A stretch of DNA of 64,000 bases from a bacterium (GTDB taxonomy: Bacteria; Electryoneota; Electryoneia; Electryoneales; Electryoneaceae): positions 576,001 to 640,000 of the forward strand of contig OY769902.1 in assembly GCA_963669175.1 (NCBI GenBank), given 5' to 3'. The notes beneath the pieces were generated by a model. The model had not been told where the DNA came from. It made no database searches and saw only the letters and a program-made list of their open reading frames with translations. This document shows, piece after piece, positions 29,059 through 52,511 of this stretch; within the stretch, counting starts at the first letter, position 1; the number at the start of each line of letters is the position of its first letter. The position numbers and the translations under genes were made by a program.

Positions 29059-29135
29059 GCGCCTGTAGCTCAACTGGATAGAGCATCTGACTACGGATCA
29101 GAAGGTTTGGGGTTCGAATCCCTACAGGCGTACCA
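29059..29135 (+). tRNA. tRNA-Arg (ACG)
   Basis: GCGCCTG acceptor stem, D-loop 'TAGCTCAACTGGATAGAGC', anticodon arm TCTGA-CT ACG GA-TCAGA, GGTTCGAATCC T-loop, 3' CCA. Confidence 0.97.
29089..29133 (+). repeat. attL core (45 bp)
   Basis: GACTACGGATCAGAAGGTTTGGGGTTCGAATCCCTACAGGCGTAC, identical to 52460-52504. Confidence 0.95.
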
Positions 29136-29142
29136 TAAAGAA

Positions 29143-29180
29143 CAAGGGGTTAGGCGAGATGCCTGACCCCTTTGTTTTTT
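29143..29180 (+). terminator. Element-supplied terminator after the tRNA
   Basis: AAGGGGTTAGGC-gagat-GCCTGACCCCTT followed by TGTTTTTT. Confidence 0.75.
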
Positions 29181-29181
29181 G

Positions 29182-29206
29182 CGCGTACATCATATGTACA
29201 TCAAAC
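29182..29206 (+). repeat. Putative integrase arm-type site (left)
   Basis: CGCGTACATCATATGTACATCAAAC, identical to 52319-52343; contains GTACATCA twice. Confidence 0.75.
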
Positions 29207-29218
29207 TCTGCTTTCAGA

Positions 29219-30301
29219 TCAATCTGGCAAGGATTCCGTGTCGTCTGTAAGAACCGCATAAGACAGCTTGGAAATGGCCTGTTCGGCAACGGATGGCGCA
29301 AGGTGGGCGTAATACTTTTCTGTTACTGTCACTGAACTGTGACCAAGCAGTTGGGACACTGTCCAAATCGGAACCCCCTGCTGTACAAGGTTCGATGCGA
29401 ATGTGTGTCGCAATGTGTGTGTACTCGCCCAGGGCATACCGATGCTGGTCAGTACCTTGGAAATATGCTGTCCTACATAGTCTTGATCCCACGGTTTGTC
29501 TGGATACTTGGCAGAACAGAAGACAGGTTTACCTCGCCTTGGTTCCAGTGAACGGATAAGTTTGTCCAGAGCGGGGAATTGCTTGAAGCGTATCATCCGG
29601 TTCTTTTTCGACTTGGTTTTGCTTCCACGGAAGTGAATGACACCGTTCCGGAGATCAATGTCATCACCCATCAGGCTGACCGTTTCGCCACGACGAGCAC
29701 CGGTAAACAGCAAGAAGTCAACCATGGGCGCTAGTGGATCGCCACGAAAAGCTTCACGAAGCTTCTGAACCTGGTGAGATTCCAGAAAGCGCGGTGTTTC
29801 CTTTTCCGGTACTTTGAACTGCTGCATCTTGCGCATAGGACTTTCCACAAGGTAATCCAATTCAATGGCCTTGTTGAAGAAAGCACGAAGATGACGGAAT
29901 TCGATGTTCATGGATACTGGGGATAATGTTTTCAAACGTTCCTGCTGATAGGTCTCGACGCATGCGCGCGTTACGTCCGCAAGCTTTATATCACCTGTAA
30001 ATTCAACGAATCCGCTAATAATGTCACTGTCCATGTTTGCTGTCTTCACTGCTTTATAGTTTTGGCTGTATTCTATGTATTGCGTGAAGTACTCTGACAG
30101 TGAGATAGTGTTGTTATCCGGATCCTGGGACGGGTCGATAGCTTTGATTCCTTCTGCTTCAAACGCGTGAAGTTTTATCGCAGCTTGTCGTTTGTTGATC
30201 TTTCCAAGTGAACGTGTGCGGTTATGGCCAGTTTCGTCCCAGAATTGCAGGTACCAGATTTTCCGGCCATCCTTTCCAATACGGGTATAGATGCGTGCCA
30301 T
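29219..30301 (-). CDS. int: Tyrosine recombinase/integrase
   Basis: 'TGARRGE', 'KTK', 'HTLRHTFAS', 'LLGHSS..VTEKYYAH'; N-terminal arm-binding-like beta domain. Confidence 0.95.
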   Translation of the reverse strand: MARIYTRIGKDGRKIWYLQFWDETGHNRTRSLGKINKRQAAIKLHAFEAEGIKAIDPSQDPDNNTISLSEYFTQYIEYSQNYKAVKTANMDSDIISGFVEFTGDIKLADVTRACVETYQQERLKTLSPVSMNIEFRHLRAFFNKAIELDYLVESPMRKMQQFKVPEKETPRFLESHQVQKLREAFRGDPLAPMVDFLLFTGARRGETVSLMGDDIDLRNGVIHFRGSKTKSKKNRMIRFKQFPALDKLIRSLEPRRGKPVFCSAKYPDKPWDQDYVGQHISKVLTSIGMPWASTHTLRHTFASNLVQQGVPIWTVSQLLGHSSVTVTEKYYAHLAPSVAEQAISKLSYAVLTDDTESLPD

Positions 30302-30310
30302 GTGACCTCC

Positions 30311-30568
30311 TTACGCTGCACGCATGTGTGTTTGGAACACAGTGGAACGTTCACGATGACCATTGATGAAATCCTGAATCTGGTCATAGGTGAACATGAT
30401 CTTGTTCCCTGGAGTCCTTATACATTCAATTTTGCCATCTGCCACCCAATTATAGATGGTGTTGATATGCTTGTCGCCAAGCAACAACGCTACAGCTTTG
30501 ATGTCTTTCAGAAGTGTTCCATCTGGCCAGGTCGGTGTGGTTTTACTACGCGGAGTTTTTTCCTGCAT
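30311..30568 (-). CDS. xis: Excisionase / recombination directionality factor (HTH_17-like)
   Basis: 'IKAVALLLG..HINTIYNWVADGKIECIRTPG..IMF'; its stop codon overlaps the integrase RBS (TAAGGAGG). Confidence 0.8.
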   Translation of the reverse strand: MQEKTPRSKTTPTWPDGTLLKDIKAVALLLGDKHINTIYNWVADGKIECIRTPGNKIMFTYDQIQDFINGHRERSTVFQTHMRAA

Positions 30569-30681: not shown

Positions 30682-31515
30682 TCACGAGCTCCTGGAGCAA
30701 TAGGAAACAAAACACTTCAAATGCTCATGGTTACTAACATCATTTAGCACGCAAGCACGATTGACAGGGCATGTTTGGCACTGCCATCCAGGATTAGGCG
30801 GGTATACTTCAGCCTGAATTGCATGCAGGATACCGGCTGCAACCTGGAAGAACTGGCTGTCTGATTCAGGGGTACGAATGGAGAACCGCTGGTCAAAATC
30901 CACTGTCTTTGTTTTTACCAGCGCGTCAATGCGGAGCAAGGCGTTTTCGTCGGCTGGGATGTCACCGCGTAACCGTGCGGCATAGGCATACGCCCATAAC
31001 TGAATGTTGTTGACCATATCAGTATCCGCGGGACGCTTCGACAGTACCTTGTGGTCAACAATACTGATGCGTCCCTGATCATCGGCTTCCAGCAGGTCAA
31101 ACCGCCCGACCAGGTCAACAGGCAGGATTAAACCTGTGTCCGGGTCAACCAGTGGAATCCTGAATTCATCTTCGACAGCCACAACGTTGCCTGGGTGGAT
31201 GGAGTCGTAGAAAACTGTCAGCAGTTCACATCCCTGGTGGATGATTTCATCGTGATCTTGAATGTCCAGAACACGGCCATCGGTTTCCTGCCGCCAGTCC
31301 TCCACAAACACCTCATGAAGGTCACCAAGCTGGATCAGGCGTCCCTCCTGCCATTCACGGTAGAAACATTCCAGGGCTGTATGAATTGCAGATCCAAGCA
31401 ACATTGCCGATGGATATACCTCCCAGGGAATGCGGTCGATATACTGCAGCTTGTACTTCTGCGGGCATTGCAGCCACGTCTTGATCTGCGATGCGGAAAG
31501 GTGGTCAAGTTCCAT
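30682..31515 (-). CDS. PD-(D/E)xK nuclease (RecB/AddB/Cas4-like, four-Cys Fe-S type)
   Basis: 'HLSASQI..W.QCP', 'GSAIH', 'GRFDL', 'IVDHK', 'QLWAY', 'CQTCP...AC'. Confidence 0.85.
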   Translation of the reverse strand: MELDHLSASQIKTWLQCPQKYKLQYIDRIPWEVYPSAMLLGSAIHTALECFYREWQEGRLIQLGDLHEVFVEDWRQETDGRVLDIQDHDEIIHQGCELLTVFYDSIHPGNVVAVEDEFRIPLVDPDTGLILPVDLVGRFDLLEADDQGRISIVDHKVLSKRPADTDMVNNIQLWAYAYAARLRGDIPADENALLRIDALVKTKTVDFDQRFSIRTPESDSQFFQVAAGILHAIQAEVYPPNPGWQCQTCPVNRACVLNDVSNHEHLKCFVSYCSRSS

Positions 31516-31526
31516 GTTCGCCCCTT

Positions 31527-31667
31527 TCAGCAACTGATAAAAAGCAGGACAATGATCACAAACAGCAGAACCGCGCCTAAAATGGAATTCCCCGCCGAGC
31601 GTTCACCTTCTTGTCCGGAAAGCCCAAGCAGAATAACGATCAGAGCAGCTATAATGAGCCAAATCAT
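31527..31667 (-). CDS. 46-aa two-helix membrane protein (absent from ORF track)
   Basis: Hand translation MIWLIIAALIVILLGLSGQEGERSAGNSILGAVLLFVIIVLLFISC; strong RBS (GGGAGG); fills the gap in the operon. Confidence 0.65.
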   Translation of the reverse strand: MIWLIIAALIVILLGLSGQEGERSAGNSILGAVLLFVIIVLLFISC

Positions 31668-31751
31668 GTTTCCTCCCTTACAATGCAAACGGGCCAGCAG
31701 CCCCGAATGAGGCTACCAGCCCGCCCAGATGAATGATGTTGTGAATGTTGT

Positions 31752-32510
31752 TTATGCTGCCAGCAAGTGACGCGTGACCTGGCGGTTGACGTTGTCTGCG
31801 TGGTGGGTTTCCTGACGGGTCAGAACGTCGGTCAGGCCATTGTACAGACCCCAGACGTTGTCTTCCTCGATAGACATGAAAGCTTCCGCCTGAAGTGATT
31901 TCGGCAAGTTCAATGTGGTAAACGTGTTCTGGATGAAGGCACGGTCAACCGGGGTCTCGGTCATGCGCTTCATCGTGCGGGTGAGTGGTCCCAGGTTCTC
32001 CGCTACACTGTGCACACGATTGGAGGCAAGCTGTAGTTCTTCCACGAAGCCGTCATGGCCCCAGTGTTTGAACCGAAATCCGCCCAGCATGTAGTCGATC
32101 ATCAGACCGTTCTTACAGATCAGCCGCCGGGCGTTGAAGGACAGTCCGAACAGTGTGCTGGCATCGTACGAATTGATCACGTCCATAGTGACGTGTACCA
32201 GGTCACCGGGCCGGACTTCCATCTCCAGGTCGGGCAGCACCCACCGCTGACGATAGCGTTTGCCGTCGAAGATCATCCCGGCATCATCGAAGTACAGACC
32301 TGTACGGCCAAGAACGTCTAATGCAATGTTGCTGACATCCTCGTTGGTTACAAGCTGATATCCTGTAGAAACGACACCGACTTCCGTGTCGACACCGTTC
32401 TCCGCGATCATGACCGCGTTCCTGCTGGACGGGCTTCCATCCGGTGTGGTCAAAGGAACCAGCTTCACCGGGACGAAGGGATCACTGATATTTGTGTTGC
32501 GTCTGGGCAT
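31752..32510 (-). CDS. DUF932/DUF945 family protein (phage/plasmid/ICE-associated)
   Basis: 'GVVS.GYQLV.N', 'INSYDAS', 'RLICKNGL', 'WGLYNGLT'. Confidence 0.8.
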   Translation of the reverse strand: MPRRNTNISDPFVPVKLVPLTTPDGSPSSRNAVMIAENGVDTEVGVVSTGYQLVTNEDVSNIALDVLGRTGLYFDDAGMIFDGKRYRQRWVLPDLEMEVRPGDLVHVTMDVINSYDASTLFGLSFNARRLICKNGLMIDYMLGGFRFKHWGHDGFVEELQLASNRVHSVAENLGPLTRTMKRMTETPVDRAFIQNTFTTLNLPKSLQAEAFMSIEEDNVWGLYNGLTDVLTRQETHHADNVNRQVTRHLLAA

Positions 32511-32615
32511 GGTACTTCTCCTTTCTGAAGGAACAGAGTTCACCCGTGCATAGGGTTTGGTTTACCCTGCAAGGTCTATTGTGTTACGTGGTTCTTGCCG
32601 AAACTCGGTAGTGGA

Positions 32616-33317
32616 TCAGGCGGCGGTACCGATGATGGTAATCAGGTCTTCGGCCTGCTGTGGTGTAAGCTGGGAAATGTTGGCGTTGAAGTTGTCACGT
32701 GAGAGTTGGATAACACGCGCCTGTGGGATGCCAATGTCACGGGCCGCCTGGAATATCCGTGCAATCTGGTCGTTGCCAACACGATCCTTGCCTGCTCCAT
32801 GTAAACCACCGTTACCGTTCTGAGGATGTGCTGCATGGTTCTGGTGACCATTGCCACGCTGCTGATAACCTCCATTGCGCCGCTGACCGTTCTGGCCATG
32901 CGCGTTGCCGTTACCGTTTCCATTGCCGTTGTGACCGTTACCAGGCTGGTCTTGATACAAATACAACCCAATCCCGGCAAGGGTTGCGCACTTCTTCAGG
33001 GCATCGCTGGCTGCAGATTTCAGGTCATCCGCCAGGGAGATCATATCACCTGTGTCTTTATGCCTGGTAATCCGGCTGCCGCCAAACTGTTCGCGAACAG
33101 TATTGTTGATGGTAAGCCTGCAGCGGACAATGACTTCATCCTGCTCAAACTGGGTGTCTACAACATTGAATGACCAGCCGCCTTCCAGGGCTTCGTTCAG
33201 CCTGTGGATGACACTGTTGGCTTCCACGTACTCGAGCGTCTGCCCGAAGTTGCCACGCCGCGTTTTCACCTGTTCAGGGGCGAACGGCGCTGCGAGTTCA
33301 CTGATGGGGATGGACAT
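32616..33317 (-). CDS. Rad52/Rad22-family (Sak-like) single-strand annealing protein
   Basis: 'L.APF....VK.R.G..G..L.YVE...VI.RLNE...GWSF', 'LKSAASDALKKCA...GIGLYLY'; Asn/Gly-rich linker; AGGAGG RBS. Confidence 0.85.
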   Translation of the reverse strand: MSIPISELAAPFAPEQVKTRRGNFGQTLEYVEANSVIHRLNEALEGGWSFNVVDTQFEQDEVIVRCRLTINNTVREQFGGSRITRHKDTGDMISLADDLKSAASDALKKCATLAGIGLYLYQDQPGNGHNGNGNGNGNAHGQNGQRRNGGYQQRGNGHQNHAAHPQNGNGGLHGAGKDRVGNDQIARIFQAARDIGIPQARVIQLSRDNFNANISQLTPQQAEDLITIIGTAA

Positions 33318-33393: not shown

Positions 33394-34026
33394 ATGGATA
33401 CAACTTCACAAGAAAAGCGAGTTCTGGCGATGGTTGCCAAAAGGGGAATCCTTCGCGCACGCGAAGTGGTTGCAGAGGGTGTTGATGACAAGACCCTCCA
33501 TCGTATCCTTGCAAAGGGCCTCATCCAGCGTGTAGGTCGGGGGCTCTACATCTCGGCGGATGCAACACCATCTTCGAATGTTGCGCTGGCCGTAGTTGCG
33601 CGTCGTGTCGGGCACGGTGTTGTCTGCCTGCTAAGTGCGCTTTCATTCCACGGTATCACAACACAACTGCCGCGTGAGGTCTGGCTGGCTGTCAACTGGA
33701 AACCAACCATAGGCACAGATGAGTGGCCGCCGATTCGGACACTGCGTTTCTCCGGTGACGCTTTTACAGAGGGTGTTGAAGTGCACCAGGTTTACCCTGC
33801 GTCGGAAGAGAACGTAAGCAACAGTGTTGCTGTTCGCGTATACAGTCCTGCAAAGACAGTTGCTGACTGCTTCAAGTTCCGGGGAACGGTTGGGCTTGAT
33901 GTTGCCATTGAGGCGCTGCGCGATACACTTCAGCATCAGAAGGCAAGCCGAGATGAAATCTGGCAGTACGCGAAGCTCTGCCGCGTACACAATGTCATGC
34001 GCCCATACCTGGAGGCTACTGCATGA
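33394..34026 (+). CDS. abiEi: Type IV TA antitoxin AbiEi
   Basis: N-terminal wHTH 'RVGRGLY', 'VCLLSALSFHGITTQ.P', 'KTVADCFKFR..VGLDVA.EAL', 'VMRPYLE'. Confidence 0.88.
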   Translation: MDTTSQEKRVLAMVAKRGILRAREVVAEGVDDKTLHRILAKGLIQRVGRGLYISADATPSSNVALAVVARRVGHGVVCLLSALSFHGITTQLPREVWLAVNWKPTIGTDEWPPIRTLRFSGDAFTEGVEVHQVYPASEENVSNSVAVRVYSPAKTVADCFKFRGTVGLDVAIEALRDTLQHQKASRDEIWQYAKLCRVHNVMRPYLEATA

Positions 34027-34940
34027 TCACGTCTTCGCCTAAGAACGTGATCGCCTCTATCCGGCAACGACTGCTTAACCTCAGTCGTGAACGGGTAGAA
34101 AGTTTCGATCTTACGCTGAACCGCTATGCTTCCGAGCGGTTACTCTATCGTCTGAGCCTTTCAGATCACAGGGACAAGTTCATTCTTAAAGGAGCCCAGC
34201 TTTTTGCCATTTGGACTACAGAAATGTATCGCCCTACACGTGATATCGATTTACTCGGGTACGGTGAACCAACCCCAGAACACATGGAAGCTGTTTTCCG
34301 TACGCTGTGCGAGATGCCAGTTGAACATGATGATGGGCTTACGTTCGATGCCGACTCCATACAGGCGGCTGAGATTCGTGAGGACAACAGCTACGGTGGT
34401 ATTCGTGTCAGACTATCTACATGGCTCGGCGCTGCTTTAATACCTGTTCAGATTGATATTGGCTTCGGCGATATCCTGACACCTGGCCCACTTGAAACAG
34501 AATTTCCGGTGTTGCTGGGCCACCCAGCCCCTCAGATCAGGGTGTATCCCATTGAAACCGTCATAGCGGAGAAGGTCCAGGCCATGGTCAACCTTGGCAT
34601 AGCAAACAGTCGTATGAAGGACTTCTATGACGTGGCGCATATTGCAGGTCAGTTTACGTTCCAGGGGGCAACACTGGCAACGGCAGTTCAGGCAACATTC
34701 ACGAAGCGTGGCACTGTAATACCCTCAGGTCGCCCAGTCGCCCTGACTGCGGAGTTTGCTGAGGACAAGACGAAACAGCGCCAATGGAAAGCTTTCCTGC
34801 AACGGACGGGCTTGGATGCTTACAAGGACCTCACCAGCCTCATTGAATTCCTTTTTACGTTCACAGAGCCCGTGCTTGTTGCTGCTCGGCAAGGCGATTC
34901 GCTTCTAAAAACCTGGACGCCCGACAAAGGGTGGGAATAG
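34023..34940 (+). CDS. abiEii: Type IV TA toxin AbiEii (nucleotidyltransferase)
   Basis: 'ERLLYRLS', 'LKGA', 'RPTRDIDL', 'AEK...M......NSRMKDFYD'; ATGA overlap with abiEi. Confidence 0.9.
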   Translation: MITSSPKNVIASIRQRLLNLSRERVESFDLTLNRYASERLLYRLSLSDHRDKFILKGAQLFAIWTTEMYRPTRDIDLLGYGEPTPEHMEAVFRTLCEMPVEHDDGLTFDADSIQAAEIREDNSYGGIRVRLSTWLGAALIPVQIDIGFGDILTPGPLETEFPVLLGHPAPQIRVYPIETVIAEKVQAMVNLGIANSRMKDFYDVAHIAGQFTFQGATLATAVQATFTKRGTVIPSGRPVALTAEFAEDKTKQRQWKAFLQRTGLDAYKDLTSLIEFLFTFTEPVLVAARQGDSLLKTWTPDKGWE

Positions 34941-35337
34941 ACTGAACCTGGTAGCCCTGTTATACGAAGAGTCATGGTCTTCAGCTAATATACTGTCAGT
35001 TATATTTTGGCTGATTGATTCTTCAGGTTGGGGTAATTGTAACGCTGTCATCTCACACTGTATTAGATCGTCTCACTATTGCGTGATGACAAATCCATAA
35101 CTTACTAAATAACAACACTCGAAAATTTGATATTTACTCCTATCACCACAATATTAACAACTTTACTAGAAAGACTTAGATTCTTGTTGTCTTAACACAA
35201 TATTAGATAGGGAAACAGAGGACATCTACTCTTCCGCGCGTCAGCGCAAGTAGTCCGCATCCTGCCCGGCAGGCCCATGTACCTACCTAACAGTGTACTA
35301 TTTTCAGGGAAGATCAACTGCGGTTATGCAGGAAAAC

Positions 35338-37713
35338 TCAGCAGGTACTGGCAGTCAGCCAGTCAGGGGATGTCGGGGCAAGGTAAACGGTCCGGCCACG
35401 AAGCTGAATACGAGCCTGGAAACTCAGGTTCTCTGGGACGGCACTGTACAGCAAATGATCCTGAGGAACCTGTCCCAGGTAAAGCGTGTCCAGCCAGAAG
35501 GCGGCATTGGTTCCGCCATTGGGTCTGGTCGTTACTTTGACAATGTTATCCACTTGCCGAATTTGCGCCAGAACGTCCTCAGGTTTGCTAATCCCCTGGT
35601 TGAGGCTGCCTACCAGCGGGATTACTGCTTCCTGTAGCCAGAGAGGCTGTGGCGTGGATTTCCGTTGGGGTACAATGATAGACCTTATAGTGGACTGCTG
35701 TTCCAGCATAAGGTCTACCGTTTCCTGACTGAAGCAATGGAAAGCAGCGCTGCCGGTTGTCTCGGCACGACTGCCATGCACTACATGCCACATCGCAACA
35801 GCCCAGGCACGGCGGTTGTCGGTCTTGCTTCGATCCCACGCTTCCAGGAAACGGATAGGACCAGCCAGGTCATCTTCACTCGGCTCCGGGTTCTGCTGCA
35901 GGATGGATGCAATCCACTTGTTGTAGGTCATCGTAACCGCCTTCGTCTCTTCGACCAGGTCCAAGGCAGCGGGTTCCATCCAGATCGGGACCAATCCTTT
36001 AAAGTAAACCAGTGAAGAGGTCTGCATGGTGTCCGACTGCCAACGGGCCACCACACGATTGTAGTTGTGGACCAGAGGGAAATCCCGCTCAATCATCTCT
36101 GCTTTCCTGACAAACAGGTCACGGTCTGTCTTTGCTGCAGCGATGTAATCAGGCATCTGCAAATCCGGATCTTCAAGCAATGCCCTGTCAGCTTGCGTGT
36201 TCCATTTCAAACGCTGGACTTCGCACTGCAAACCTGCAGACAAGGCAGCCACTTTATCCAGCCTGCCAGCATGTACAGCGGCGGCGATCCCATAGGTCAG
36301 GGAACCAATCCTGTTGCCAAGTGCCTTGACAGCGACAAAAGGCAATGCCGCAAGGGGATCTTTCAGGCGCGTCTTTGGGGGTGTGTCCTTACGCTGGTAG
36401 TCCGGATACCATTCTGCCGAAGCAACAGCCTCAACCACACTATCCTGTGTATTAATAATATAATAGTCTCCATCAAAGTCACCATCAAGGATACTGGCAA
36501 GATCGTTGTTCAGGTAAACTGTGCCCTCGAGGGGATTGGCTACTGCTTCCGGTTCGTTCCAGACAGCCTGCAGACTCCAGGGATCACGAATTGGGTACCT
36601 TGACAAAATCACCGGGCCAGCAGGGAGATCTACAGCACAGATGACTCCATCAGGCAAATCTGCATAAGCACCCATACAGCCGGTCAATTCGAGCCCACCA
36701 CCAGTGGCAAGTCGGACGTATTCTCGCCTCATCAACTGCACAAGCTGACGATGCAGCCAGGGATGTTCCGGCCCCACACCGGCCTGCAGGAAAGCTTCTG
36801 CTTTGGTGCGAACATCGTTGAACTCATCCTCACGTGACACCAACCCAAGGAAACTCAGGGCGGCCTTACGATCAGTCAGAGCATCACGGATAACATCCAG
36901 CTTCTGTTCGGCCATCGGCCAGACTGCATCCAATACTGCCTGGTCAAACCACTCGGCAATACTGAACGAACTGCTGTAAGGGCGTGTAGTAGCCACATCC
37001 CTGACACCAAACCAGCAGGTCCACGGCTGGTTCTGTGGTGGTGTCCCTGCACCTTTAATCATGCTGTCCGGCAACAGGAAGTTCACCCCGTCATGCAAAT
37101 CGGCGGGCAACAGTGTACCCTTGGCAAGCCATCGTTGATCAGGACTGTCACTGACCAAACGCACCTGTAGCTGTCGTGCAGCCAACCCCAGCTTTTCAAC
37201 CAACGCCTTGGATATGAATCCCATGCCATCGCCAGTGCCAGCCTCACCTTCTGCAACAACATGGCCCTTGATACCATCCAGGCGGTGGATGCCGTGATGA
37301 CACCCGCTGAACAAGGTGCCGAGGTAGCTCAATGCTTCCTGGCTGCTGCGAAAGAAGGGGTGAATCAGCTTGCGGACCTCATCGGTCGCCAGCCAGAAGT
37401 GGCCTTTCTTGATTGAACTGGACCCACCGAGGATACGGAATCGTTTCCCGTCATGGTCCAGCCCTCCCCCCAGCAGGGCCTCACAGGCAGCGTACCAGCG
37501 GTCATCAGGGCCGTCCTCTGGATACTTCAGCTGGATCCGGACCAGGTTGAAAGGATCGATCATCCTTTCTATGATCGTATCCCTCAAGGGAATAGACGGC
37601 GCATGCTTCAACCGCGCTCCATTGTAGGTGTAACACGGAATCATCCTCTGATAAACCTCCTTTGCAAGTTGACGTACCTGTTCTTCTGTCTGCGCCGACA
37701 CTTCGATCTTCAT
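35338..37713 (-). CDS. Single-subunit two-barrel RNA polymerase, eukaryotic RdRP / YonO-like (~791 aa)
   Basis: Ordered motifs 'GKRFRILGGSSS.KKGHFW', 'GTLFS', 'GDGMGFIS', 'QVR...KGTL', 'DSMIKG', 'VILSRYP', catalytic 'DGDFDGD', 'IGSLT'; AGGAGG RBS before the ATG at 37713. Confidence 0.82.
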   Translation of the reverse strand: MKIEVSAQTEEQVRQLAKEVYQRMIPCYTYNGARLKHAPSIPLRDTIIERMIDPFNLVRIQLKYPEDGPDDRWYAACEALLGGGLDHDGKRFRILGGSSSIKKGHFWLATDEVRKLIHPFFRSSQEALSYLGTLFSGCHHGIHRLDGIKGHVVAEGEAGTGDGMGFISKALVEKLGLAARQLQVRLVSDSPDQRWLAKGTLLPADLHDGVNFLLPDSMIKGAGTPPQNQPWTCWFGVRDVATTRPYSSSFSIAEWFDQAVLDAVWPMAEQKLDVIRDALTDRKAALSFLGLVSREDEFNDVRTKAEAFLQAGVGPEHPWLHRQLVQLMRREYVRLATGGGLELTGCMGAYADLPDGVICAVDLPAGPVILSRYPIRDPWSLQAVWNEPEAVANPLEGTVYLNNDLASILDGDFDGDYYIINTQDSVVEAVASAEWYPDYQRKDTPPKTRLKDPLAALPFVAVKALGNRIGSLTYGIAAAVHAGRLDKVAALSAGLQCEVQRLKWNTQADRALLEDPDLQMPDYIAAAKTDRDLFVRKAEMIERDFPLVHNYNRVVARWQSDTMQTSSLVYFKGLVPIWMEPAALDLVEETKAVTMTYNKWIASILQQNPEPSEDDLAGPIRFLEAWDRSKTDNRRAWAVAMWHVVHGSRAETTGSAAFHCFSQETVDLMLEQQSTIRSIIVPQRKSTPQPLWLQEAVIPLVGSLNQGISKPEDVLAQIRQVDNIVKVTTRPNGGTNAAFWLDTLYLGQVPQDHLLYSAVPENLSFQARIQLRGRTVYLAPTSPDWLTASTC

Positions 37714-38010
37714 GATGAACCTCCTGTTGGTTGGTACTTCCATGCATGGAAAAGCCCACATCCCAGTCAAAGCTAAGGCTTTGTTTTTTATGGGGTGGGC
37801 GTGAAAACAGTTGTAAATATAACACTTATTCTCAATTGGTGACCACGAAATTTTGCTGATGTCCTCTCTATATGGATTTTGGTTAAAGCGATATATAGCT
37901 GGGTATACAATTCTGTGTACAAATCTTCTAGTGCGTGTGGAGTATATAGGTATGAGGGCTCAGAAGGGAGCACCTGATCAAACCTGACGAAACAGAAAGG
38001 GCAGGACACA

Positions 38011-38586: not shown

Positions 38587-38721
38587 CATAGCAACTCCGG
38601 GTTGATGCGAACCACCCGTCAACCCGGAGATGCTGAACTGCTTGACAGTAGATTTGTGTTCCCTCTTTGTAAATAGTGCCCTCAACGCAACGAAATACGA
38701 TAAACTCAGGAGACTTTAACC

Positions 38722-40449: not shown

Positions 40450-40497
40450 AGCTGTTCAGAATCTTGACGTTAATGCAACTTTGCTGATCCTGATTGA

Positions 40498-40532
40498 GCC
40501 CGTGAACAGTCCAAAACTGTTCCGGGTTTTTC
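40498..40532 (+). terminator. Rho-independent terminator after the primase gene
   Basis: CCCG(T)GAACAGT-ccaaa-ACTGTTCCGGG followed by TTTTTT. Confidence 0.65.
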
Positions 40533-43570: not shown

Positions 43571-43589
43571 CAAACCGAAAGGTATATTC

Positions 43590-45173: not shown

Positions 45174-45798
45174 CGAAAAACGTGAGGTTGCGTTCGTCCG
45201 CAAACTGGTTGACTTATGGGAAGACCGGGGAGCAATGGCGAATCTGCGTCGAGGTCTTCGGGTTGAAAACCCGAAAGCAGACGCCCGCATGGTGTCAACG
45301 ATTGCACCGATGCTGTATGGAGTGTCCGCATCTGACGAAGATCGCTTCTATTGGATTGCATCTCTGTTCGCTACAGTTCATACCGGTTCGAATAAACCGG
45401 TCTGGATGAAGATGCATCTCGATGAACCGGCTGAAATCTGGAAACGCCATACAATTGGGGAGGCCTTCCATAAGATGAGTGCGGCTGAACGGCGAGAACG
45501 TAACCTCAAGCCGGACAAAAAAACCAGCACAGATAGCCGCTTTGAAAAACTGATGAACAGCAACTGGGAAGATCTGCCCAACAGGCTGCGCCACGCTGTC
45601 CGTCAACTTGCATCACGCCATGGCTCGGATCGTGAACGGGTGGACATTGACTGGGTCCGCCTGCTGCACGACATCGCACCGCGCAGGTTCAATAGTCCAG
45701 AACGATACATCCAGCAGGCTTGGGCGAATAGCTACTGGCGTACCACCACGAAGAAGGAAGAAGAAAACAAAACAACTGAAAAGACTGAAAACGCATAA
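45160..45798 (+). CDS. casB: Type I-E small subunit Cas11/Cse2
   Basis: 'A.LRRG', 'RF..L', 'LRHAV', 'IDW..L..D', 'WA..YW'. Confidence 0.88.
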   Translation: MTVNDEKREVAFVRKLVDLWEDRGAMANLRRGLRVENPKADARMVSTIAPMLYGVSASDEDRFYWIASLFATVHTGSNKPVWMKMHLDEPAEIWKRHTIGEAFHKMSAAERRERNLKPDKKTSTDSRFEKLMNSNWEDLPNRLRHAVRQLASRHGSDRERVDIDWVRLLHDIAPRRFNSPERYIQQAWANSYWRTTTKKEEENKTTEKTENA

Positions 45799-45815
45799 CA
45801 CAAGGAGAAAGACCC

Positions 45816-46967
45816 ATGTTTATCGAATTGCACATGATCCAGAACATTCCCCCGGCCAACCTGAACCGGGATGACAGTGGCGCTCCCAAGGATTGTGAGT
45901 TCGGCGGCCATCGTCGTGCACGGATCTCATCCCAGAGCCTCAAGCGTGCGATCAGGTTTCATGATGATATGCGAAATTTGGAAGGTGCATCACCGTCCCA
46001 GCGTACAAAGCGAATTGTGGAACAGGTCGTTGATCGGCTTGTCAACGGCGGTCATGATAAGGAAAAAGCGGAATCCATCGTCAAGATCGTTATGGACGCC
46101 GCAGGGGTTTCGACAGATGACAAGGGGAAATCCAGCATCCTGTTCTTTATCAATGACGCCGCAATGGACTGCATTGCTCAACTCATCCATGACCACTTTG
46201 AAGACTTGGACCAGAAGAAAAAGAAGGACATTCCCGGCGATGTCGTCAACGAGATCGTGGACATTTTCCTGGAAGAGATCCACTCCCCGGATCTCGCCCT
46301 GTTCGGTAGGATGGTGGCTGTCGATCCCAAATCACCTCTCGGTGCAAAGAACTTGAAGATCAACGCTGCCTGCCAGGTCGCACACGCCATAAGCACCAAT
46401 CGTGTCAGCATGGATGAAGACTTCTTCACCGCTGTGGATGATTTGAATCCTGATGAAGAGACTGGCGCTGGCATGATGGGCGTGATCGATTTCAATAGCT
46501 CGTGCTTTTACAGATACAGTGTCATCGATACCCGCGCCCTGGAAGCGAATCTGGGCCATGACCAGAAACTCGCTGAGAACACAGTTCACGCTTTCATCAA
46601 AGCGTCTGTCGAGTCGCTGCCGAGCGGCAAGCAGAACAGCTTCGCCGCACATACTCGTCCGGATTTCGTGCTGGCCATCGTCCGTAAGGGGCAACCACTC
46701 TCCTTGGCTAATTCGTTCGCCAACCCGGTTCGTCCCTGGCAGAACGAAGGCATGGTGGAGGCTAGCGTGAAAGCAATGTATGAACACCTCAAGAAGCTCA
46801 CCGAAACGTATGGTGACGGCGACCTGATCGAGCATTTCTGGATCTATACAAAAGATCTGTCCGAAGAAGACAAAAAGAGGTGGGAAGAAGTGTTTGGTTT
46901 CAAGGACGAAAGCCTCGAAACCCTCATTGGTGACACTATTGGGCAAGCATTTCCCGAGGAGGATTAA
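45816..46967 (+). CDS. cas7: Cas7 (Cse4)
   Basis: 'NLNRDD.GAPK...FGG..RARISSQSLKRA.R', 'ALFGRM', 'QVAHAIST', 'PSGKQNSFA'. Confidence 0.96.
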   Translation: MFIELHMIQNIPPANLNRDDSGAPKDCEFGGHRRARISSQSLKRAIRFHDDMRNLEGASPSQRTKRIVEQVVDRLVNGGHDKEKAESIVKIVMDAAGVSTDDKGKSSILFFINDAAMDCIAQLIHDHFEDLDQKKKKDIPGDVVNEIVDIFLEEIHSPDLALFGRMVAVDPKSPLGAKNLKINAACQVAHAISTNRVSMDEDFFTAVDDLNPDEETGAGMMGVIDFNSSCFYRYSVIDTRALEANLGHDQKLAENTVHAFIKASVESLPSGKQNSFAAHTRPDFVLAIVRKGQPLSLANSFANPVRPWQNEGMVEASVKAMYEHLKKLTETYGDGDLIEHFWIYTKDLSEEDKKRWEEVFGFKDESLETLIGDTIGQAFPEED

Positions 46968-46970
46968 ACC

Positions 46971-47657
46971 ATGGCAGTCTTACTCCTGCAACTGATGGGT
47001 CCGATGCAGGCATGGGGGCTGCAAAGCCGGTTCGATATCCGGGATACAGGACGTGAACCGTCCAAGTCCGGTGTAGTAGGAATGCTTGCTTCGGCTTTAG
47101 GCAGATCTCGTTCGGAACCCATTGATGATCTGGCCGCTCTACGTATGGGAGTCCGTGTGGATCGTGAGGGTGTTCTGATGCGGGATTTCCAGACCACCAT
47201 GTCTGTACCGAAAGCGGCCGGAGGTGAATTTGGGACCGTAACTAGCGACCGATATTACCTGAGTGATGGTGCATTCCTTGTGGGACTGGAGGGTGAGCGC
47301 TCGCGACTGGAAACCGTATCGCAGGCCCTGGCTATCCCACGCTGGCCGCTATACCTGGGGCGTCGGGCGATGCCGCCCGCGGAACCGTTGCTGGTCGGAA
47401 ACGGCGAACTTATGGATACAACCCTCGAGACCGCTTTGCAGAATCACCAATGGCTTCATGACTATACTCACAATCCCAGTCGTCCGGCGAAAGTCCGCCT
47501 GTTGATCGAGGTTACTCCGAACGATGCACACAAGGCAGGCGTAACTGTTGAAAGACGACCGGATCAACCGGTGACGTTCATGCCGCCAACCCATACCATC
47601 CGGTATGTAGCCACCAAGTTTATTCCCCTTCCACCCGAAGATAGAGGAGGTGAATGA
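46971..47657 (+). CDS. cas5: Cas5e
   Basis: 'L.GPMQAWG..SRF..R.T..EPSKSGV.G', 'YLGRR'. Confidence 0.95.
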   Translation: MAVLLLQLMGPMQAWGLQSRFDIRDTGREPSKSGVVGMLASALGRSRSEPIDDLAALRMGVRVDREGVLMRDFQTTMSVPKAAGGEFGTVTSDRYYLSDGAFLVGLEGERSRLETVSQALAIPRWPLYLGRRAMPPAEPLLVGNGELMDTTLETALQNHQWLHDYTHNPSRPAKVRLLIEVTPNDAHKAGVTVERRPDQPVTFMPPTHTIRYVATKFIPLPPEDRGGE

Positions 47658-48304
47658 TGCCCTATCTGTCACGACTGCTGCTTAACCCTGTCGGACGGGG
47701 CGTTGTCCGAGAGCTGCAGCATCCCTATGAGATGCACCGAACGCTTATGCGGAGCTTCGCGCCCAGGTCGCGTGAGGAGATTGGAAGCGTACTGTTTCGG
47801 GCAGATCTTCCGAAGGATACAACTCCCATCAAACTCTACGTCCAGTCTGATCATGAACCCGATTGGACCTTCCTCGCTGATTGGGAAAATTACCTGGTGA
47901 ACTGCGATTCAGCAACCACCAATCCTGCTGTCAAGCCATTCAAACCAGAGTTTTCCACTGGAATGCATTACCGGTTTCGGTTGCGCGCCAACCCAACCGT
48001 CAAGAAAAACGGGAAACGGATCGGTTTGGTCGGCCAGAAAGCTCAAGTGACCTGGATGCTGCGGAAAGCAGAACAACATGGATTCACATTATCCTCAGAG
48101 TCACTGCTTGCTCGCAACGAGGGCTATCTGCGAACTGGGACGTTGCAGAAAAACGAAGCCCAACACATGATGACACACCTGGCCGTTACGTATGATGGGG
48201 TGCTGCGTGTCGTTGATCCCTTAAAATTCCACGACGCCTGGCGCAACGGTATCGGTCCGGCTAAAGCCTTCGGATTTGGTCTGCTGAGTCTTGCGCCGGC
48301 TTGA
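47654..48304 (+). CDS. cas6e: Cas6e crRNA endonuclease
   Basis: 'YLSRL', 'Y..HR', 'FRLRANP', Gly-rich 'GIGPAKAFGFGLLSL'. Confidence 0.95.
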   Translation: MMPYLSRLLLNPVGRGVVRELQHPYEMHRTLMRSFAPRSREEIGSVLFRADLPKDTTPIKLYVQSDHEPDWTFLADWENYLVNCDSATTNPAVKPFKPEFSTGMHYRFRLRANPTVKKNGKRIGLVGQKAQVTWMLRKAEQHGFTLSSESLLARNEGYLRTGTLQKNEAQHMMTHLAVTYDGVLRVVDPLKFHDAWRNGIGPAKAFGFGLLSLAPA

Positions 48305-48551
48305 GTTGGAAGGAATTAGTTTTCAATTGACAGGGTACCTGGGCAACTGAGTATCCACCATCCAGTTCTTTGACAAGCGAACCTATGACAGTCAGATATG
48401 GAAAATGGGGGCTGGCTCGATTTGTTTTGTTCAATGGTGATTTCAGCTTGCTGAAGTTTCGGAACAAATGGTGTCTGTCCCGCATTTTCCGGTCATGAGA
48501 ACGATAACTTCCAGGAGAAGTATGAGTTCCTGATATCACCGGAGGTATATC

Positions 48552-49478
48552 ATGCAGGATTATCGTTCATTGCCGAAGCTTCGGGACAGCATCAGCCATT
48601 TGTATGTGGAGCATGCGCGTGTGGACAAGGAGGCGCAATCCATCGCTTTGCAGGACAAGGACGGGATTGTGTCTGTGCCTGTATCCGCGTTAACCCTGCT
48701 GATGCTCGGTCCCGGGACAACCATTACCCACCAGGCGGTCAAGGTGCTTGCGGACAGCGGGTGCCTGACAGTCTGGTGCGGAGAAGGCGGCATCCGTTAC
48801 TACGCGCATGGGTTGGGCGAGACCAGGAAAGGCTACAAGCTTGAACGGCAGGCACGGTTGTGGGCGGACGAAGAGAAACACATGGCGGTTGTTCGTGCCA
48901 TGTATTTCAAACGTCTTGGTCTTCGCAACCTGAAACCGTACAACCTTGAGCAGTTGCGTGGGATGGAAGGCGCACGGGTCCGTGACAGTTACGCCCAGAT
49001 GAGCCGTGAGACCGGCGTGCCCTGGAAGGGACGTCAGTATGACCGGAGCGCCTGGAACCGTGGCGATGAGGTCAACCGTGCCCTCTCTACCGCCAACTCC
49101 TGTTTGTATGGTCTTTGCCATGCCGCGATCATTTCTGGCGGGTATTCTCCCGGATTGGGCTTCATCCATTCCGGTAAACAGCTTTCGTTTGTCTACGATA
49201 TCGCTGACCTGTACAAGATGGAAGTTACTGTACCGGTTGCCTTTAACACGGTCAAAGAAGGCCCGGAACACCTGGAACGGACCATCCGCAAGAACTGTCG
49301 GGATCAGTTTTTCAGGACAAAGCTGTTGTCACGTATTCTCCCGGACATCGACGAACTGTTCAACCTGGGCGAACGTGCGGATGAACTCCCCCTTGACGAC
49401 TGGCCTGAAGATGAAGATCCGGCACGTCCGGCGCCGTACTGGGGCTCAGACCGTGACAGTGGAGGTGAACCATGGTAG
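48552..49478 (+). CDS. cas1: Type I-E Cas1
   Basis: 'LMLGPGT.ITH.A', 'LRGMEG.RVR', 'GFIHSG...[11 protein letters not shown]'. Confidence 0.96.
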
Positions 49479-49753
49479 TCATGATTGTGGAACGGGTTTC
49501 ACCTTCACTGCGAGGCGAACTGAGCCGATGGCTGATAGAAGTGAAAGCCGGAGTGTTCGTTGGCAAGGTATCCGCGTTGGTCAGGGATAAACTGTGGGAG
49601 AAAGTGACTGAGAAACGAAAGGATGGCGCCGCTGTTCAGGTCTGGTCCACCAACAACGAACAGGGCTTCGTGATGCGTATGGAAGGAGACCGTTCACGTC
49701 AACTTGCCGACTTCGAGGGTCTTCAGCTTGTAAAACGCACCGTAAGTTCTTAA
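49472..49753 (+). CDS. cas2: Type I-E Cas2
   Basis: '[25 protein letters not shown]', 'NEQGF', 'DFEGL.LV'. Confidence 0.95.
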
Positions 49754-49763
49754 TTTACGGAGT

Positions 49764-52180
49764 GTATTCCCCACACCCGTGGGGATGAACCGGTGTTGGA
49801 TGCAGCGATCGATATCATCATCGAGTATTCCCCACACCCGTGGGGATGAACCGGTCGGGGGTATTTTCTATGGTGCCTATCAAAGGTATTCCCCACACCC
49901 GTGGGGATGAACCGTTGTCCGTTCACGTATACAGGGAATTCACCCCGTATTCCCCACACCCGTGGGGATGAACCGCCTATGCCCTTCCAAAAACCCCTTT
50001 CCTGATAGTATTCCCCACACCCGTGGGGATGAACCGGAGATACAGTTGTTAATGGGGTGCCTGTAGAAGTATTCCCCACACCCGTGGGGATGAACCGTCT
50101 GCGTCAAATTGCGAAGCGCCGCAATTGGCCGTATTCCCCACACCCGTGGGGATGAACCGCGTAGCCAGTGCGTTGGTTTCTTCGTTCGCCAGTATTCCCC
50201 ACACCCGTGGGGATGAACCGAAGGGTTCAGGGTATTTCAAGGGCCATATTGAAGTATTCCCCACACCCGTGGGGATGAACCGCGGCAGCTTACCATTGTG
50301 ACAGGGTGATAGGCCGTATTCCCCACACCCGTGGGGATGAACCGGAGAAGATGAAGGACCACGCGGCGGACTGTGTAGTATTCCCCACACCCGTGGGGAT
50401 GAACCGCTCTGTGGATGGAATCGGATGGTATGATGGCAGTATTCCCCACACCCGTGGGGATGAACCCGGAGACGTCGGTCCCGATGGTGATGGTAGTCGT
50501 ATTCCCCACACCCGTGGGGATGAACCGCTGCTGTACCCAATGTTGGCGAAATAGAACCAGTATTCCCCACACCCGTGGGGATGAACCGTTTTACAACCAG
50601 CACATGAGACAGGAATTCAAGTATTCCCCACACCCGTGGGGATGAACCGAACAAGCACACGGGGTACGCGAATTATTACATCGGTATTCCCCACACCCGT
50701 GGGGATGAACCGAGGCTGGCCGCAAGAAGGGCAAGGCAGACTCCGTATTCCCCACACCCGTGGGGATGAACCGCAATACAAGCCACTAAAGCAACTCCTC
50801 CAAGAGTATTCCCCACACCCGTGGGGATGAACCGTGCAGATGTTATAGCGCAACTAGCGTTCGAGGCGTATTCCCCACACCCGTGGGGATGAACCGCGGG
50901 GTTCGGGGCAAACGCCGAGCTTTGGAAAGTATTCCCCACACCCGTGGGGATGAACCGTTCACCTGAACTTGACAGGCTGGAGAGTGAAGAGTATTCCCCA
51001 CACCCGTGGGGATGAACCGCCAATGCGGCGACTGAAGATAAACCACTTACGTATTCCCCACACCCGTGGGGATGAACCGGAAAGCAGACCGGCCCGAAAA
51101 CCGAGGCGGGGGTATTCCCCACACCCGTGGGGATGAACCGCTGAACGAGTATGCAGCGGCCGATTTGTCGCCGTATTCCCCACACCCGTGGGGATGAACC
51201 GATGGGCCGGGGCGGATTCGATTTTGGTTTAAAGTATTCCCCACACCCGTGGGGATGAACCGGGTTTCGTTCAATTTTATCTTGAACTTAGTTCGTATTC
51301 CCCACACCCGTGGGGATGAACCGAAGATGTCTGAAACCGAGTACCAAAAGAAGTTGTATTCCCCACACCCGTGGGGATGAACCGAAAGCAAAAGGAAAGC
51401 ACTACTATGCGTAGAAGTATTCCCCACACCCGTGGGGATGAACCGGCCGTTGAGGGCACAACCCTGACCTGGTCGGGGTATTCCCCACACCCGTGGGGAT
51501 GAATCGTATTTGGCAATAATCTCGATAAAAGCACGGGCGTATTCCCCACACCCGTGGGGATGAACCGGGGTAGGGATGCGTGACCTGCGATTCGAGCACG
51601 TATTCCCCACACCCGTGGGGATGAACCGACCCTGAACGTAAACTGTGCCGTGAGTTTGGCGTATTCCCCACACCCGTGGGGATGAACCGTTCGGCATGAT
51701 GATTCAGACCCTGATTTCGCCGTATTCCCCACACCCGTGGGGATGAACCGTATATAAATCAGGCCAAAGAAGGCCTTACTGAAGTATTCCCCACACCCGT
51801 GGGGATGAACCGGCGGAGCGGGCACTCAGGCGGCTTCCGAAGCCGTATTCCCCACACCCGTGGGGATGAACCGACGACGTACAGCGCAAATAAAGGCCAT
51901 TGAGCGTATTCCCCACACCCGTGGGGATGAACCGCTTCACGGGCAAAACTGAACATTGAAAAGGGAAGTATTCCCCACACCCGTGGGGATGAACCGGAGT
52001 AAGCATGAAACCTTCAGATTTGCAGAAAGTATTCCCCACACCCGTGGGGGTGAACCGCCTTGCGAAATAAAGTTTCGTGCTGTCGTGGAAGTATTCCCCA
52101 CACCCGTGGGGATGGACCGCACTGGGGGATGCCATTGGCCGAGATGCCGGGGTATTCCCCACACCCGTGGGGGTGAACTC
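49764..52180 (+). CRISPR. Type I-E CRISPR array, 40 repeats / 39 spacers (31-34 nt)
   Basis: 29-bp repeat GTATTCCCCACACCCGTGGGGATGAACCG with ~61-bp period; the last three repeats are degenerate, marking the trailer end. Confidence 0.98.
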
Positions 52181-52311
52181 TCAGCGTAATGAGGAATGAG
52201 GAATTAGCAATTAGGAATGAGGAATGAGAGTGTCTTCGTAAGTCGTTTAATTTCTAATTCTTAATTCCTAATTTCCTCACCCCGTGGGGATGAACTTTCA
52301 GCGTAATGAGG
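52164..52311. repeat. Heptamer-repeat hairpin cassette flanked by a 31-bp duplication of the terminal CRISPR repeat
   Basis: CCCGTGGGG(G/A)TGAACT(C/T)TCAGCGTAATGAGG at 52164-52194 and 52281-52311, with (AATGAGG)n ... (CCTAATT)n between them. Confidence 0.75.
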
Positions 52312-52318
52312 TTGCTTC

Positions 52319-52392
52319 CGCGTACATCATATGTACATCAAACCATGTTGAAACACTGTGAAAAAGGGTGATGAAGTGTGATGAACTGTGAA
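52319..52392 (+). promoter_or_regulatory. Right arm-type site plus four 10-bp-phased GTGA repeats (putative Xis sites)
   Basis: 25-bp repeat identical to 29182-29206; GTGA at 52358, 52368, 52378 and 52388. Confidence 0.65.
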
Positions 52393-52459
52393 GGGCTAAC
52401 CGACTGGTAAAACAATCAACTAGAGTGTATTTCTTCTGTTACCAAAATGCCTTCTTGAC

Positions 52460-52504
52460 GACTACGGATCAGAAGGTTTGGGGTTCGAATCCCTACAGGC
52501 GTAC
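52460..52504 (+). repeat. attR core (45-bp duplicated tRNA-Arg 3' part)
   Basis: Identical to 29089-29133. Confidence 0.95.
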
Positions 52505-52511
52505 ACAGAGA

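Follow-up and report, generated by a model that had tools for sequence, protein, structure and literature searches.

The 64,000-nt stretch analyzed here (contig OY769902.1 of assembly GCA_963669175.1, positions 576,001 to 640,000; the window) contains a 23.4-kb element bracketed by two copies of a 45-nt direct repeat that lie 23,371 nt apart. ARAGORN found a single tRNA gene in the window, tRNA-Arg(acg), and the 100% identical repeat is built from its 3′ part. This result confirmed the exact att boundaries proposed in an earlier reading that was made from the sequence alone (the sequence-only reading). The leftward arm of the element encodes a single-chain polymerase, a Rad52-type protein, a DUF932 protein, a small membrane protein candidate, a PD-(D/E)xK exonuclease, an excisionase-like helix-turn-helix (HTH) protein, and a tyrosine integrase, with an AbiE pair inserted on the opposite strand; the Pfam families and the list of open reading frames (ORFs) supported this content and the insertion as they had been described. 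In the rightward arm, the HNH gene, the cas operon, and the CRISPR array were found as described, whereas the archaeo-eukaryotic primase (AEP) reported there is probable but not established. Measured from cas3 through the array, this segment takes up 11.3 kb of the 23.4 kb, in agreement with the estimate that about half of the element is devoted to adaptive immunity. The features are summarized in Table 1. Every core ORF is intact, and the element itself is real and apparently intact.

We searched the ORFs of the window element (≥60 aa) for known families, comparing 20 with Pfam, 10 with PHROGs, and 7 with NCBIfam. No capsid, portal, terminase, tail, relaxase, or type IV secretion system family was matched, no family of packaging-redirection genes (terS, cpm/sid-like, or capsid-size genes) was found, and no CI- or Stl-like repressor was recognized. 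The sequence-only reading had likewise recognized no virion, terminase, relaxase, type IV secretion, or CI-like gene.

Table 1. Features of the window element and its integration target (window positions).
Feature	Position	Strand	Basis
tRNA-Arg(acg), integration target	29059-29135	+	ARAGORN and sequence reading; 3′ part is the attL core
attL core, 45 nt	29089-29133		Repeat search, 100% identical to attR; last 45 nt before the tRNA CCA end
Left subterminal repeat, 33 nt	29174-29206		Repeat search; 91% match to partner just inside the other end
Tyrosine integrase (int)	29219-30301	-	Phage_integrase PF00589, E = 9e-23; SAM-like N-terminal domains
HTH_17 protein, excisionase/AlpA-like	30311-30568	-	PF12728, E = 1e-6; phrog_66 "excisionase and transcriptional regulator", 6.7e-5
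PD-(D/E)xK exonuclease	30682-31533	-	PDDEXK_1 PF12705, E = 3.4e-32; phrog_69 exonuclease, 3.4e-30
53-aa ORF with two hydrophobic stretches, small membrane protein candidate	31527-31688	-	ORF translation
DUF932 protein	31752-32543	-	PF06067, E = 9.6e-16
Rad52/Sak-type single-strand annealing protein	32616-33317	-	Rad52_Rad22 PF04098, E = 2.7e-17; phrog_1097, Erf-like single-strand annealing protein
AbiEi antitoxin/regulator	33394-34026	+	PF13338, E = 1.5e-8; ORF open from 33052
AbiEii nucleotidyltransferase toxin	34023-34940	+	PF08843, E = 4.4e-45; type IV toxin-antitoxin/abortive infection
Single-chain two-barrel polymerase, RdRP/YonO-like, 791 aa	35338-37713	-	Structure model, Foldseek, conserved residues
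HNH endonuclease, C-terminal HTH-like region	38011-38586	+	HNH_3 PF13392, E = 2.4e-8; phrog_59 HNH, 1.5e-16
Hairpin, 16-nt arms, 94% complementary	38590-38634		Repeat search; between HNH and AEP genes
Probable AEP, 575 aa	38722-40449	+	Sub-threshold primase matches, conserved motifs; helical/HTH C-terminal part
Type I-E cas operon	40850-49753	+	All eight genes above Pfam cut-offs
cas3	40850-43570	+	Pfam
cse1 (cas8e)	43590-45173	+	Pfam
cse2	45118/45160-45798	+	Pfam
cas7	45816-46967	+	Pfam
cas5	46971-47657	+	Pfam
cas6e	47654-48304	+	Pfam
cas1	48552-49478	+	Pfam
cas2	49472-49753	+	Pfam
CRISPR array, 40 repeats of 29 nt, 39 spacers of 31-34 nt	49764-52180	+	Repeat search
Array trailer	52164-52311		3′ half of the repeat and TCAGCGTAATGAGG twice, 117 nt apart, flanking an AT-rich hairpin with 26-nt arms
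Right subterminal repeat, 33 nt	52311-52343		Repeat search; partner of 29174-29206
attR core, 45 nt	52460-52504		Repeat search; followed by a hairpin and T-run at 52509-52540

The polymerase and the probable primase

The polymerase ORF is open to 37770 (810 aa), and the start codon preceded by AGGAGG places the beginning of the gene at 37713 (791 aa). The match of the protein to PF05183, a family of RNA-dependent RNA polymerases (RdRPs) (E = 0.0035, 16.5 bits) was under the 23.8-bit cut-off. A word-indexed search of 5.8 billion proteins gave 39 relatives, mostly unnamed proteins of metagenome-assembled genomes, and precomputed PF05183 matches were recorded for 8 of 39 homologues. A profile search of 1.84 billion representatives gave 968 proteins at E ≤ 1e-3, 262 at E ≤ 1e-30, and five above 890 bits. 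These counts indicate that the polymerase superfamily is moderately large and that the clade of the window protein is small. Of 79 genomes of the phylum, 6 have the polymerase, and every one of these belongs to the taxonomic family of the window.

The D412/D414/D416 triad (DGDFDGD) was invariant in 28 homologues, as were R372, P374, D162, R185, and K198. The accessible text of PMC2919709 gives a pattern of eight residues, metal-binding and basic or proline, for all two-barrel polymerases; the invariant residues match this list, the correspondence being one of order alone and not of residue-level alignment. An AlphaFold (AF2) model built from 11 sequences had a pLDDT of 79.4 and a pTM of 0.70. 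When the model was compared with the PDB using Foldseek, the top matches were maize and Arabidopsis RDR2 and fungal QDE-1 (E = 3e-20 to 1e-16, TMq 0.47-0.61), followed by the single-subunit RNA polymerases of Thermus phages and a crAss-like phage (1.6e-9 to 4.7e-4) and finally by cellular RNA polymerases at ~1e-3 to 1e-2. Phage proteins labelled RdRP were matched in BFVD (E = 5.7e-15 to 6e-11), and a sequence search of the PDB with the polymerase profile gave nothing at E ≤ 1. The identification of the 791-aa protein as an RdRP-like RNA polymerase is sound, and RNA synthesis is predicted.

Like the RdRP/YonO-like enzymes, the protein is a single chain that contains a DxDGD metal site and a pair of double-psi barrels. 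In fold it is closer to RDR2 and QDE-1 (E = 3e-20) than to the solved phage enzymes (1.6e-9 or weaker). YonO of SPbeta, described in the accessible part of PMC5467207 as a DNA-dependent RNA polymerase, differs in that it belongs to a full-size phage.

The 575-aa protein gave no Pfam match at E ≤ 0.01, and no helicase domain was detected in it. Its family matches were weak and below the cut-offs (phrog_21866, 6.4e-4; NF040561 PrimPol, 1.7e-3). Only four homologues were found in the large collections; PF22548 (AEP-TOTE) was matched by two of the four, also below the cut-off (best 0.0049), and the ESM Atlas feature match of the 575-aa protein to AEP-TOTE clusters was 0.98. AEPs are characterized by three motifs within an AEP fold, namely DxD (motif I), sGxGxH (motif II), and an acidic residue (motif III). 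The residues D95-x-D97 and S133/S134/G138/H140 (S-S-x3-G-x-H) were invariant in the four homologues, and these motifs aligned weakly (E = 0.013 and 0.024) to their counterparts, DxD and sGxGxH, in two further primase-like proteins. A PDB sequence search with the 575-aa profile gave nothing at E ≤ 1. The protein is probably an AEP without a recognizable helicase.

Between the polymerase and AEP genes lies the HNH gene, whose homologue in a related element (G009:C28, 31% identical) also adjoins the polymerase. The hairpin behind it is a candidate terminator or regulatory site.

Relatives, exchanged cargo, and the backbone without the polymerase

A polymerase search against the contigs of one genome per species gave 10 loci, of which seven carry the polymerase at 52-76% identity. 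The seven belong to five genomes of the taxonomic family of the window, two of which have two copies. Three of the seven contigs stop at or just past the polymerase gene, and the other four, which extend more than 2 kb downstream, all have Rad52. The Rad52-DUF932-PD-(D/E)xK-int run is complete in three of these four loci, and the fourth contig ends inside Rad52. The exonuclease is kept in the related elements, the DUF932 copies are 54-58% identical to that of the window, and the integrases are 29-30% identical. A homologue of the 575-aa protein was present in three of the seven loci, either divergent from the polymerase, as in the window, or between PD-(D/E)xK and int, and HNH was present in two of the five elements with enough sequence.

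The related element on contig G009:C28 spans ~26 kb between tRNA-Ser(gga) and a diverged 58-nt copy of its 3′ part. Its order is AbiE, int, PD-(D/E)xK, DUF932, Rad52, 14 kb of cargo, HNH, and polymerase, and divergently AEP, RNase H, and HTH_17, followed by the tRNA. The RNase H gene (PF00075, 6.7e-12) lies directly 3′ of the AEP gene at G009:C28:25219-25815 (L043 5219-5815); the window element has none. Contig G043:C32 begins with tRNA-Ser(cga), followed by cargo, the core, and int at the contig end. The relatives occupy different tRNA genes (Arg, Ser-gga, and Ser-cga).

No virion or transfer gene was found among 60 ORFs of the related loci with Pfam, PADLOC, or PHROGs, including ten leftover ORFs that had no virion match in PHROGs. 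Three delimited elements (12.4, 23.4, and ~26 kb) have no virion or conjugation gene among the tested ORFs, which argues that the window element did not arise by deletion from a larger prophage or integrative and conjugative element. The gene combination that the sequence-only reading had singled out recurs as a set in other genomes, and the delimited homologous elements are, by their tested ORFs, not larger elements of those kinds.

The comparison of cargo slots that had been suggested gave the same core with cargo swapped between elements. The G009:C28 cargo consists of a type I restriction-modification system with the embedded PADLOC candidates PDC-S02, PDC-S32, and PDC-S06, an ISL3 transposase, and AbiE. 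HmaA/B/C-like genes are carried by G043:C32, and both G001:C36 and G044:C60 have a DISARM-like DrmD, DrmMI, and a DEAD+DUF1998 protein, to which G001:C36 adds DarT with a macro-domain protein and an AbiE of a different subtype. The G044:C17 cargo includes a type I restriction-modification system, ThsB-TIR, SLATT, and TIR-NACHT. AbiE pairs of varied subtypes lie in the polymerase/Rad52 gap or beside int. The variable parts thus appear, as far as they are annotated, to be largely anti-phage systems, and there are three cargo slots: the arm divergent from the polymerase, the polymerase-Rad52 gap, and the int-att gap.

QueC-like and TGT-like genes in the G044:C17 cargo arm (L038 3950-6810) suggest a 7-deazaguanine (Dpd-type) DNA modification system. 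A large protein with an FGE-sulfatase domain is encoded beside Rad52 in two G044 elements (L006 13012-15561 on G044:C17; L072 11497-12771 on G044:C67); one copy has Big domains, and the protein is not a known defense gene. A 663-aa ORF without a Pfam or PHROG match lies between PD-(D/E)xK and int on G044:C17 (L039 7808-9799; G044:C17:24808-26799, minus strand), in the one element without a homologue of the 575-aa AEP. It may encode a replication protein of another kind, or it may be a spurious ORF on the antisense strand.

We also searched with DUF932 as the anchor and found relatives in 14 of the 79 phylum genomes. Of ten DUF932 loci taken, four have the full Rad52-DUF932-PD-(D/E)xK-int backbone. 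The loci G030:C25, G051:C13, and G051:C18 carry the backbone without the polymerase; they adjoin tRNA-Gln, tRNA-Gly, and tRNA-Ser, at a backbone identity of 38-53%. The G030:C25 element is complete (12.4 kb, with a 38-nt direct repeat at tRNA-Gln) and has a DUF5906 protein. In G051:C13 and G051:C18 (L074 and L075), the position of the polymerase upstream of Rad52 is taken by a protein of 1018 or 847 aa with a DnaG-type CHC2 zinc finger, and the L074 protein also has a weak match to the AEP small subunit (0.0093). The G044:C67 contig, which has an AAA_25 ATPase, ends too near Rad52 for the presence of a polymerase to be judged. These sequence comparisons indicate that the backbone predates the polymerase and is more widespread. 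Since backbone loci without it exist, the polymerase is a replaceable module; together with the 575-aa AEP, it appears to represent one of several alternative modules for replication.

A second DUF932 clade at 44-48% identity (five places in G045:C2; G003:C77, G043:C3, G044:C49, and others) is without Rad52, sometimes has an integrase nearby, and may belong to another element type. In regard to the polymerase, a distant clade at 31-37% identity comprised 16 metagenome loci and three loci from the genome-contig scan. No backbone gene was detected by tblastn in the 18 of these loci that were covered (the 16 metagenome loci and two of the three others). At the distant locus L056, the polymerase occurs with a PriCT_1 primase-like protein, an integrase, and tRNA-Gln.

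Termini, flanking genes, and CRISPR-Cas cargo

The 33-nt subterminal repeats are candidate arm sites for the integrase or Xis, and a 25-nt repeat pair inside both ends of the G009:C28 element is analogous to them. Short tandem GTGATGAA-like motifs at 52360-52400, in the interval that separates attR from the subterminal repeat, may serve as sites bound by a recombinase or Xis. The tRNA-Arg(acg) gene is an integration hot spot, with other islands at the same tRNA in two genomes. The island in G009 (L035, G009:C33:313500-322500) is 6.6 kb long, its 47-nt repeat includes the 45-nt core of the window, and its integrase is 26% identical to the window integrase; the island in G018 (L036/L037, G018:C1:2133500-2156000) is ~21 kb long and has 59-nt and 85-nt repeats. 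Elsewhere in the genome of the window, the C-terminal half of the integrase has a copy at 50% identity at 5258765-5259349 (G000:C1), in a region with several more integrase matches (5224424-5241272).

The start of Rad52 was placed at the ATG with an upstream AGGAGG (33317) in an ORF that is open to 33524. Between Rad52 and the polymerase, and opposite to both in strand, lie the AbiEi and AbiEii genes, in the AbiE order of regulator followed by nucleotidyltransferase. AbiEi homologues align only from approximately residue 74-115 of the ORF that opens at 33052. The same slot holds an AbiE of a differing subtype in the same-genus genome (L003 12911-14554, DUF6088-type AbiEi, vs 33394-34940 in the window); tblastn of the window AbiEi and AbiEii against L003 matched no more than a small segment (residues 52-93 of AbiEi), which runs opposite to Rad52.

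The type I-E gene set and the 29-nt repeat array are complete in the element. The first repeat begins 10 nt after the cas2 stop (49753-49764), so that a leader, if any, would have to lie within cas2. Degenerate repeats occur at the far end of the array, where the three repeats nearest attR carry substitutions. Apart from the Cas1 of the element, the 5.45-Mb genome has no Cas1 match. One of 15 other family genomes gave a Cas7e match, and similar arrays were found in 8 of 78 other phylum genomes, none of them the same-genus genome. These results fit an acquisition of CRISPR-Cas with the element. No spacer target beyond chance was found elsewhere in the genome (best 20/21 nt), and searches of a phage collection, plasmids, and the 79 phylum genomes returned repeat-to-repeat matches only. 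No related locus has cas genes, which indicates that CRISPR-Cas is interchangeable cargo.

Role of the polymerase and alternative explanations

We consider it probable that the window element is a member of a small family of capsid-less, conjugation-less integrative elements in tRNA 3′ ends, in which defense cargo is swapped and the replication module is formed by an RdRP/YonO-like polymerase and an AEP-like protein. The backbone consists of the tyrosine integrase, the HTH_17 excisionase-like protein, and the PD-(D/E)xK/DUF932/Rad52 recombination module. The integrase and the HTH_17 protein, acting as Xis, would excise a circle at the 45-nt core, and this circle would be copied with the help of the polymerase and the AEP. 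The Rad52/exonuclease module would serve recombination, repair, and cargo exchange, and passage between cells might be by helper phage, mobilization, transformation, or vesicles. The label "self-replicating" depends on the weakly supported AEP assignment and is to be used with that qualification.

For the polymerase itself, the reading that we prefer, at slightly under even odds, is that it makes the initiating RNA at the origin, as a primase or an R-loop maker. The replication-start role is favored because primase-type genes take the position of the polymerase in the sister elements, because AEP or PriCT proteins are linked to the polymerase in two clades, and because an RNase H gene adjoins the AEP in one member. 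It is also favored because a primase role has been proposed for the RdRP-like enzymes of selfish elements by Aravind and co-workers, as reported in the accessible text of PMC3417536. According to the same text, cognates of RdRP occur in firmicute phages and "novel selfish elements", and their genes often lie beside restriction endonuclease and URI DNases, sometimes with RNase H. The three themes of Iyer and Aravind (2011) cited there (a DNase of the restriction endonuclease fold, RNase H, and the primase idea) all recur in the family of the window element. A private transcriptase like YonO is the main alternative, and we hold this role somewhat more tentatively.

Several results weigh against the family as described and against the replication-start role. 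YonO is a transcriptase and not a primase, as far as the accessible part of PMC5467207 shows. All polymerase loci were retrieved with a polymerase query, so its status as a core gene is partly circular, and the three polymerase-less loci lie in genomes without any polymerase match. The cargo of these relatives is partly non-defense (a beta-helix protein with a type IX secretion tail and a subtilase). The AEP assignment rests on sub-threshold matches, the AF2 model of the 575-aa protein is unusable (pLDDT 48.6), and the 50-kb contig G044:C17 has no homologue of this protein. No origin-like iterons were found in 34900-35400, 37700-38800, or 40400-40900. An empty attB was not found in 20 relatives, because synteny does not extend to the right flank, whose dipeptidase was present in 3 of 20 and never beside the tRNA; the tRNA with the left flank was present in 20 of 20. 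Contig depth was similar for the element and its flanks (32.4 vs 29.8 and 41.6 vs 34.9). The sequencing data comprised three runs (X1-X3) of one study in the form of assembled contigs, which are unable to show att junctions. The X1 and X2 contigs break at 29104, inside the att core, as expected for a 45-nt repeat; the single odd joint of 33753 to 39652 in X3, which consists of scattered 151-nt pieces, was taken as noise.

The element could instead be a true phage satellite that a helper phage induces, replicates, and packages, with defense cargo that guards host and satellite against other phages. We regard this as unlikely, and the helper dependence inferred in the sequence-only reading is not supported. 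HNH proteins assist cos cleavage in some phages, and the window element has an HNH endonuclease. The general build agrees with that of the phage satellites (P4-like satellites, phage-inducible chromosomal islands (PICIs), PICI-like elements (PLEs), and marine virion-encapsidated integrative mobile elements (VEIMEs)) in the site-specific tyrosine integrase, excisionase/AlpA-like HTH, probable primase-type replication module, absence of virion genes, and variable anti-phage cargo, and P4-like satellites have defense hot spots (accessible parts of PMC9618062 and PMC9122126). However, HNH is present in only two of five elements, and neither a small terminase nor a capsid-size or packaging-redirection gene was detected among the ORFs searched, nor was a CI- or Stl-like repressor recognized. 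A virome screen that had been suggested earlier brought no support, since no polymerase relative was found in 2.9 million IMG/VR contigs with two exact peptide patterns, which can miss relatives. At 23-26 kb, the elements exceed the 7-20 kb quoted for satellites in the accessible part of PMC13376191. The window element also adds a Rad52/exonuclease/DUF932 module and a two-barrel polymerase, and the terms "RNA polymerase", "Rad52", and "DUF932" are absent from the main text of PMC9618062, the supplements lying outside the look-up.

It is improbable that the polymerase is a conflict or defense effector, for example one that makes antisense or double-stranded RNA against invaders and is possibly linked to CRISPR. 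Its place between two cargo slots full of defense genes and its best structural matches, the polymerases of RNA interference (RNAi), agree with such a function. However, in the close and distant clades alike, the genes that adjoin it on its conserved side are of recombination and primase types, and a primase-like gene fills its place in the polymerase-less relatives. A coupling of CRISPR and polymerase is not supported, since tblastn with the window Cas proteins detected no cas gene in the 7 close or 18 distant loci.

An immobile remnant, either a decayed prophage or a fixed island with leftover att repeats and core genes as dead cargo, agrees with the absence of an excision signal from the flanks of relatives or the contig-level data and with a G+C content (0.45-0.56) that is not distinct from that of the flanks, but is highly improbable in view of the exact 45-nt repeats, the intact core ORFs, the relatives in different tRNAs with different cargo and with two copies in some genomes, and the absence of a delimited relative with phage structural genes; the second delimited element (~26 kb, at tRNA-Ser), which is also without virion genes among the ORFs tested, speaks further against a prophage remnant.

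In regard to known systems, GI-24 of Vibrio cholerae has a complete type I-E system with an array, an integrase, and attL/attR, and its excision was detected by nested PCR (PMC6360697, accessible part). It resembles the window element as an att-flanked, integrase-bearing island with a complete type I-E system and differs in being 17 kb long and non-self-mobilizing and in having a recombination module only; no replication module or polymerase is mentioned in the accessible part of PMC6360697. The sister islands G030:C25, G051:C13, and G051:C18 share the same backbone beside tRNAs and differ in their replication gene, which encodes a primase-like protein with a CHC2 zinc finger or a DUF5906 protein where the window element has the polymerase and AEP, and in their partly non-defense cargo. 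A full-text literature search, which took in neither supplements nor the primary paper of Iyer and Aravind, gave no description of the architecture (tRNA att, Rad52/DUF932, AEP, and defense slots). The proposal of a possible new class of element was nevertheless overstated, as the polymerase is missing from other tRNA loci that have the same backbone, and as the presence of RdRP-like genes in bacterial selfish elements had already been published. No current view is overturned; besides such genes, both integrative defense islands and islands that carry CRISPR-Cas are already known.

The most interesting aspect is the natural swap of a polymerase for a primase. In its full form, this would mean that a eukaryotic-RdRP-like polymerase replaced the conventional primase as the replication starter of a capsid-less element, together with a helicase-less AEP and, in some members, RNase H, and that the elements are dedicated shuttles of whole defense systems, the largest being a complete CRISPR-Cas and its array; we put this forward as a speculative and rather doubtful possibility. 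If the reading holds, the proposal that RdRP-like enzymes originated as makers of replication primers for selfish elements would be directly testable here, because the sister elements share a backbone but use either the polymerase and AEP or an ordinary primase.

If the family exists as described, a mobile platform in a little-studied phylum would carry entire defense systems, adaptive immunity included, between tRNA sites, and the window element would supply the only CRISPR adaptation module of this genome. The 791-aa protein, one of the prokaryotic proteins that come closest in structure to RDR2 and QDE-1, would be of use as an outgroup in tracing how the RNAi polymerases originated. If the polymerase did replace the primase, these elements would provide an experimentally accessible bacterial system for the function that the RNAi polymerases had before eukaryotes.

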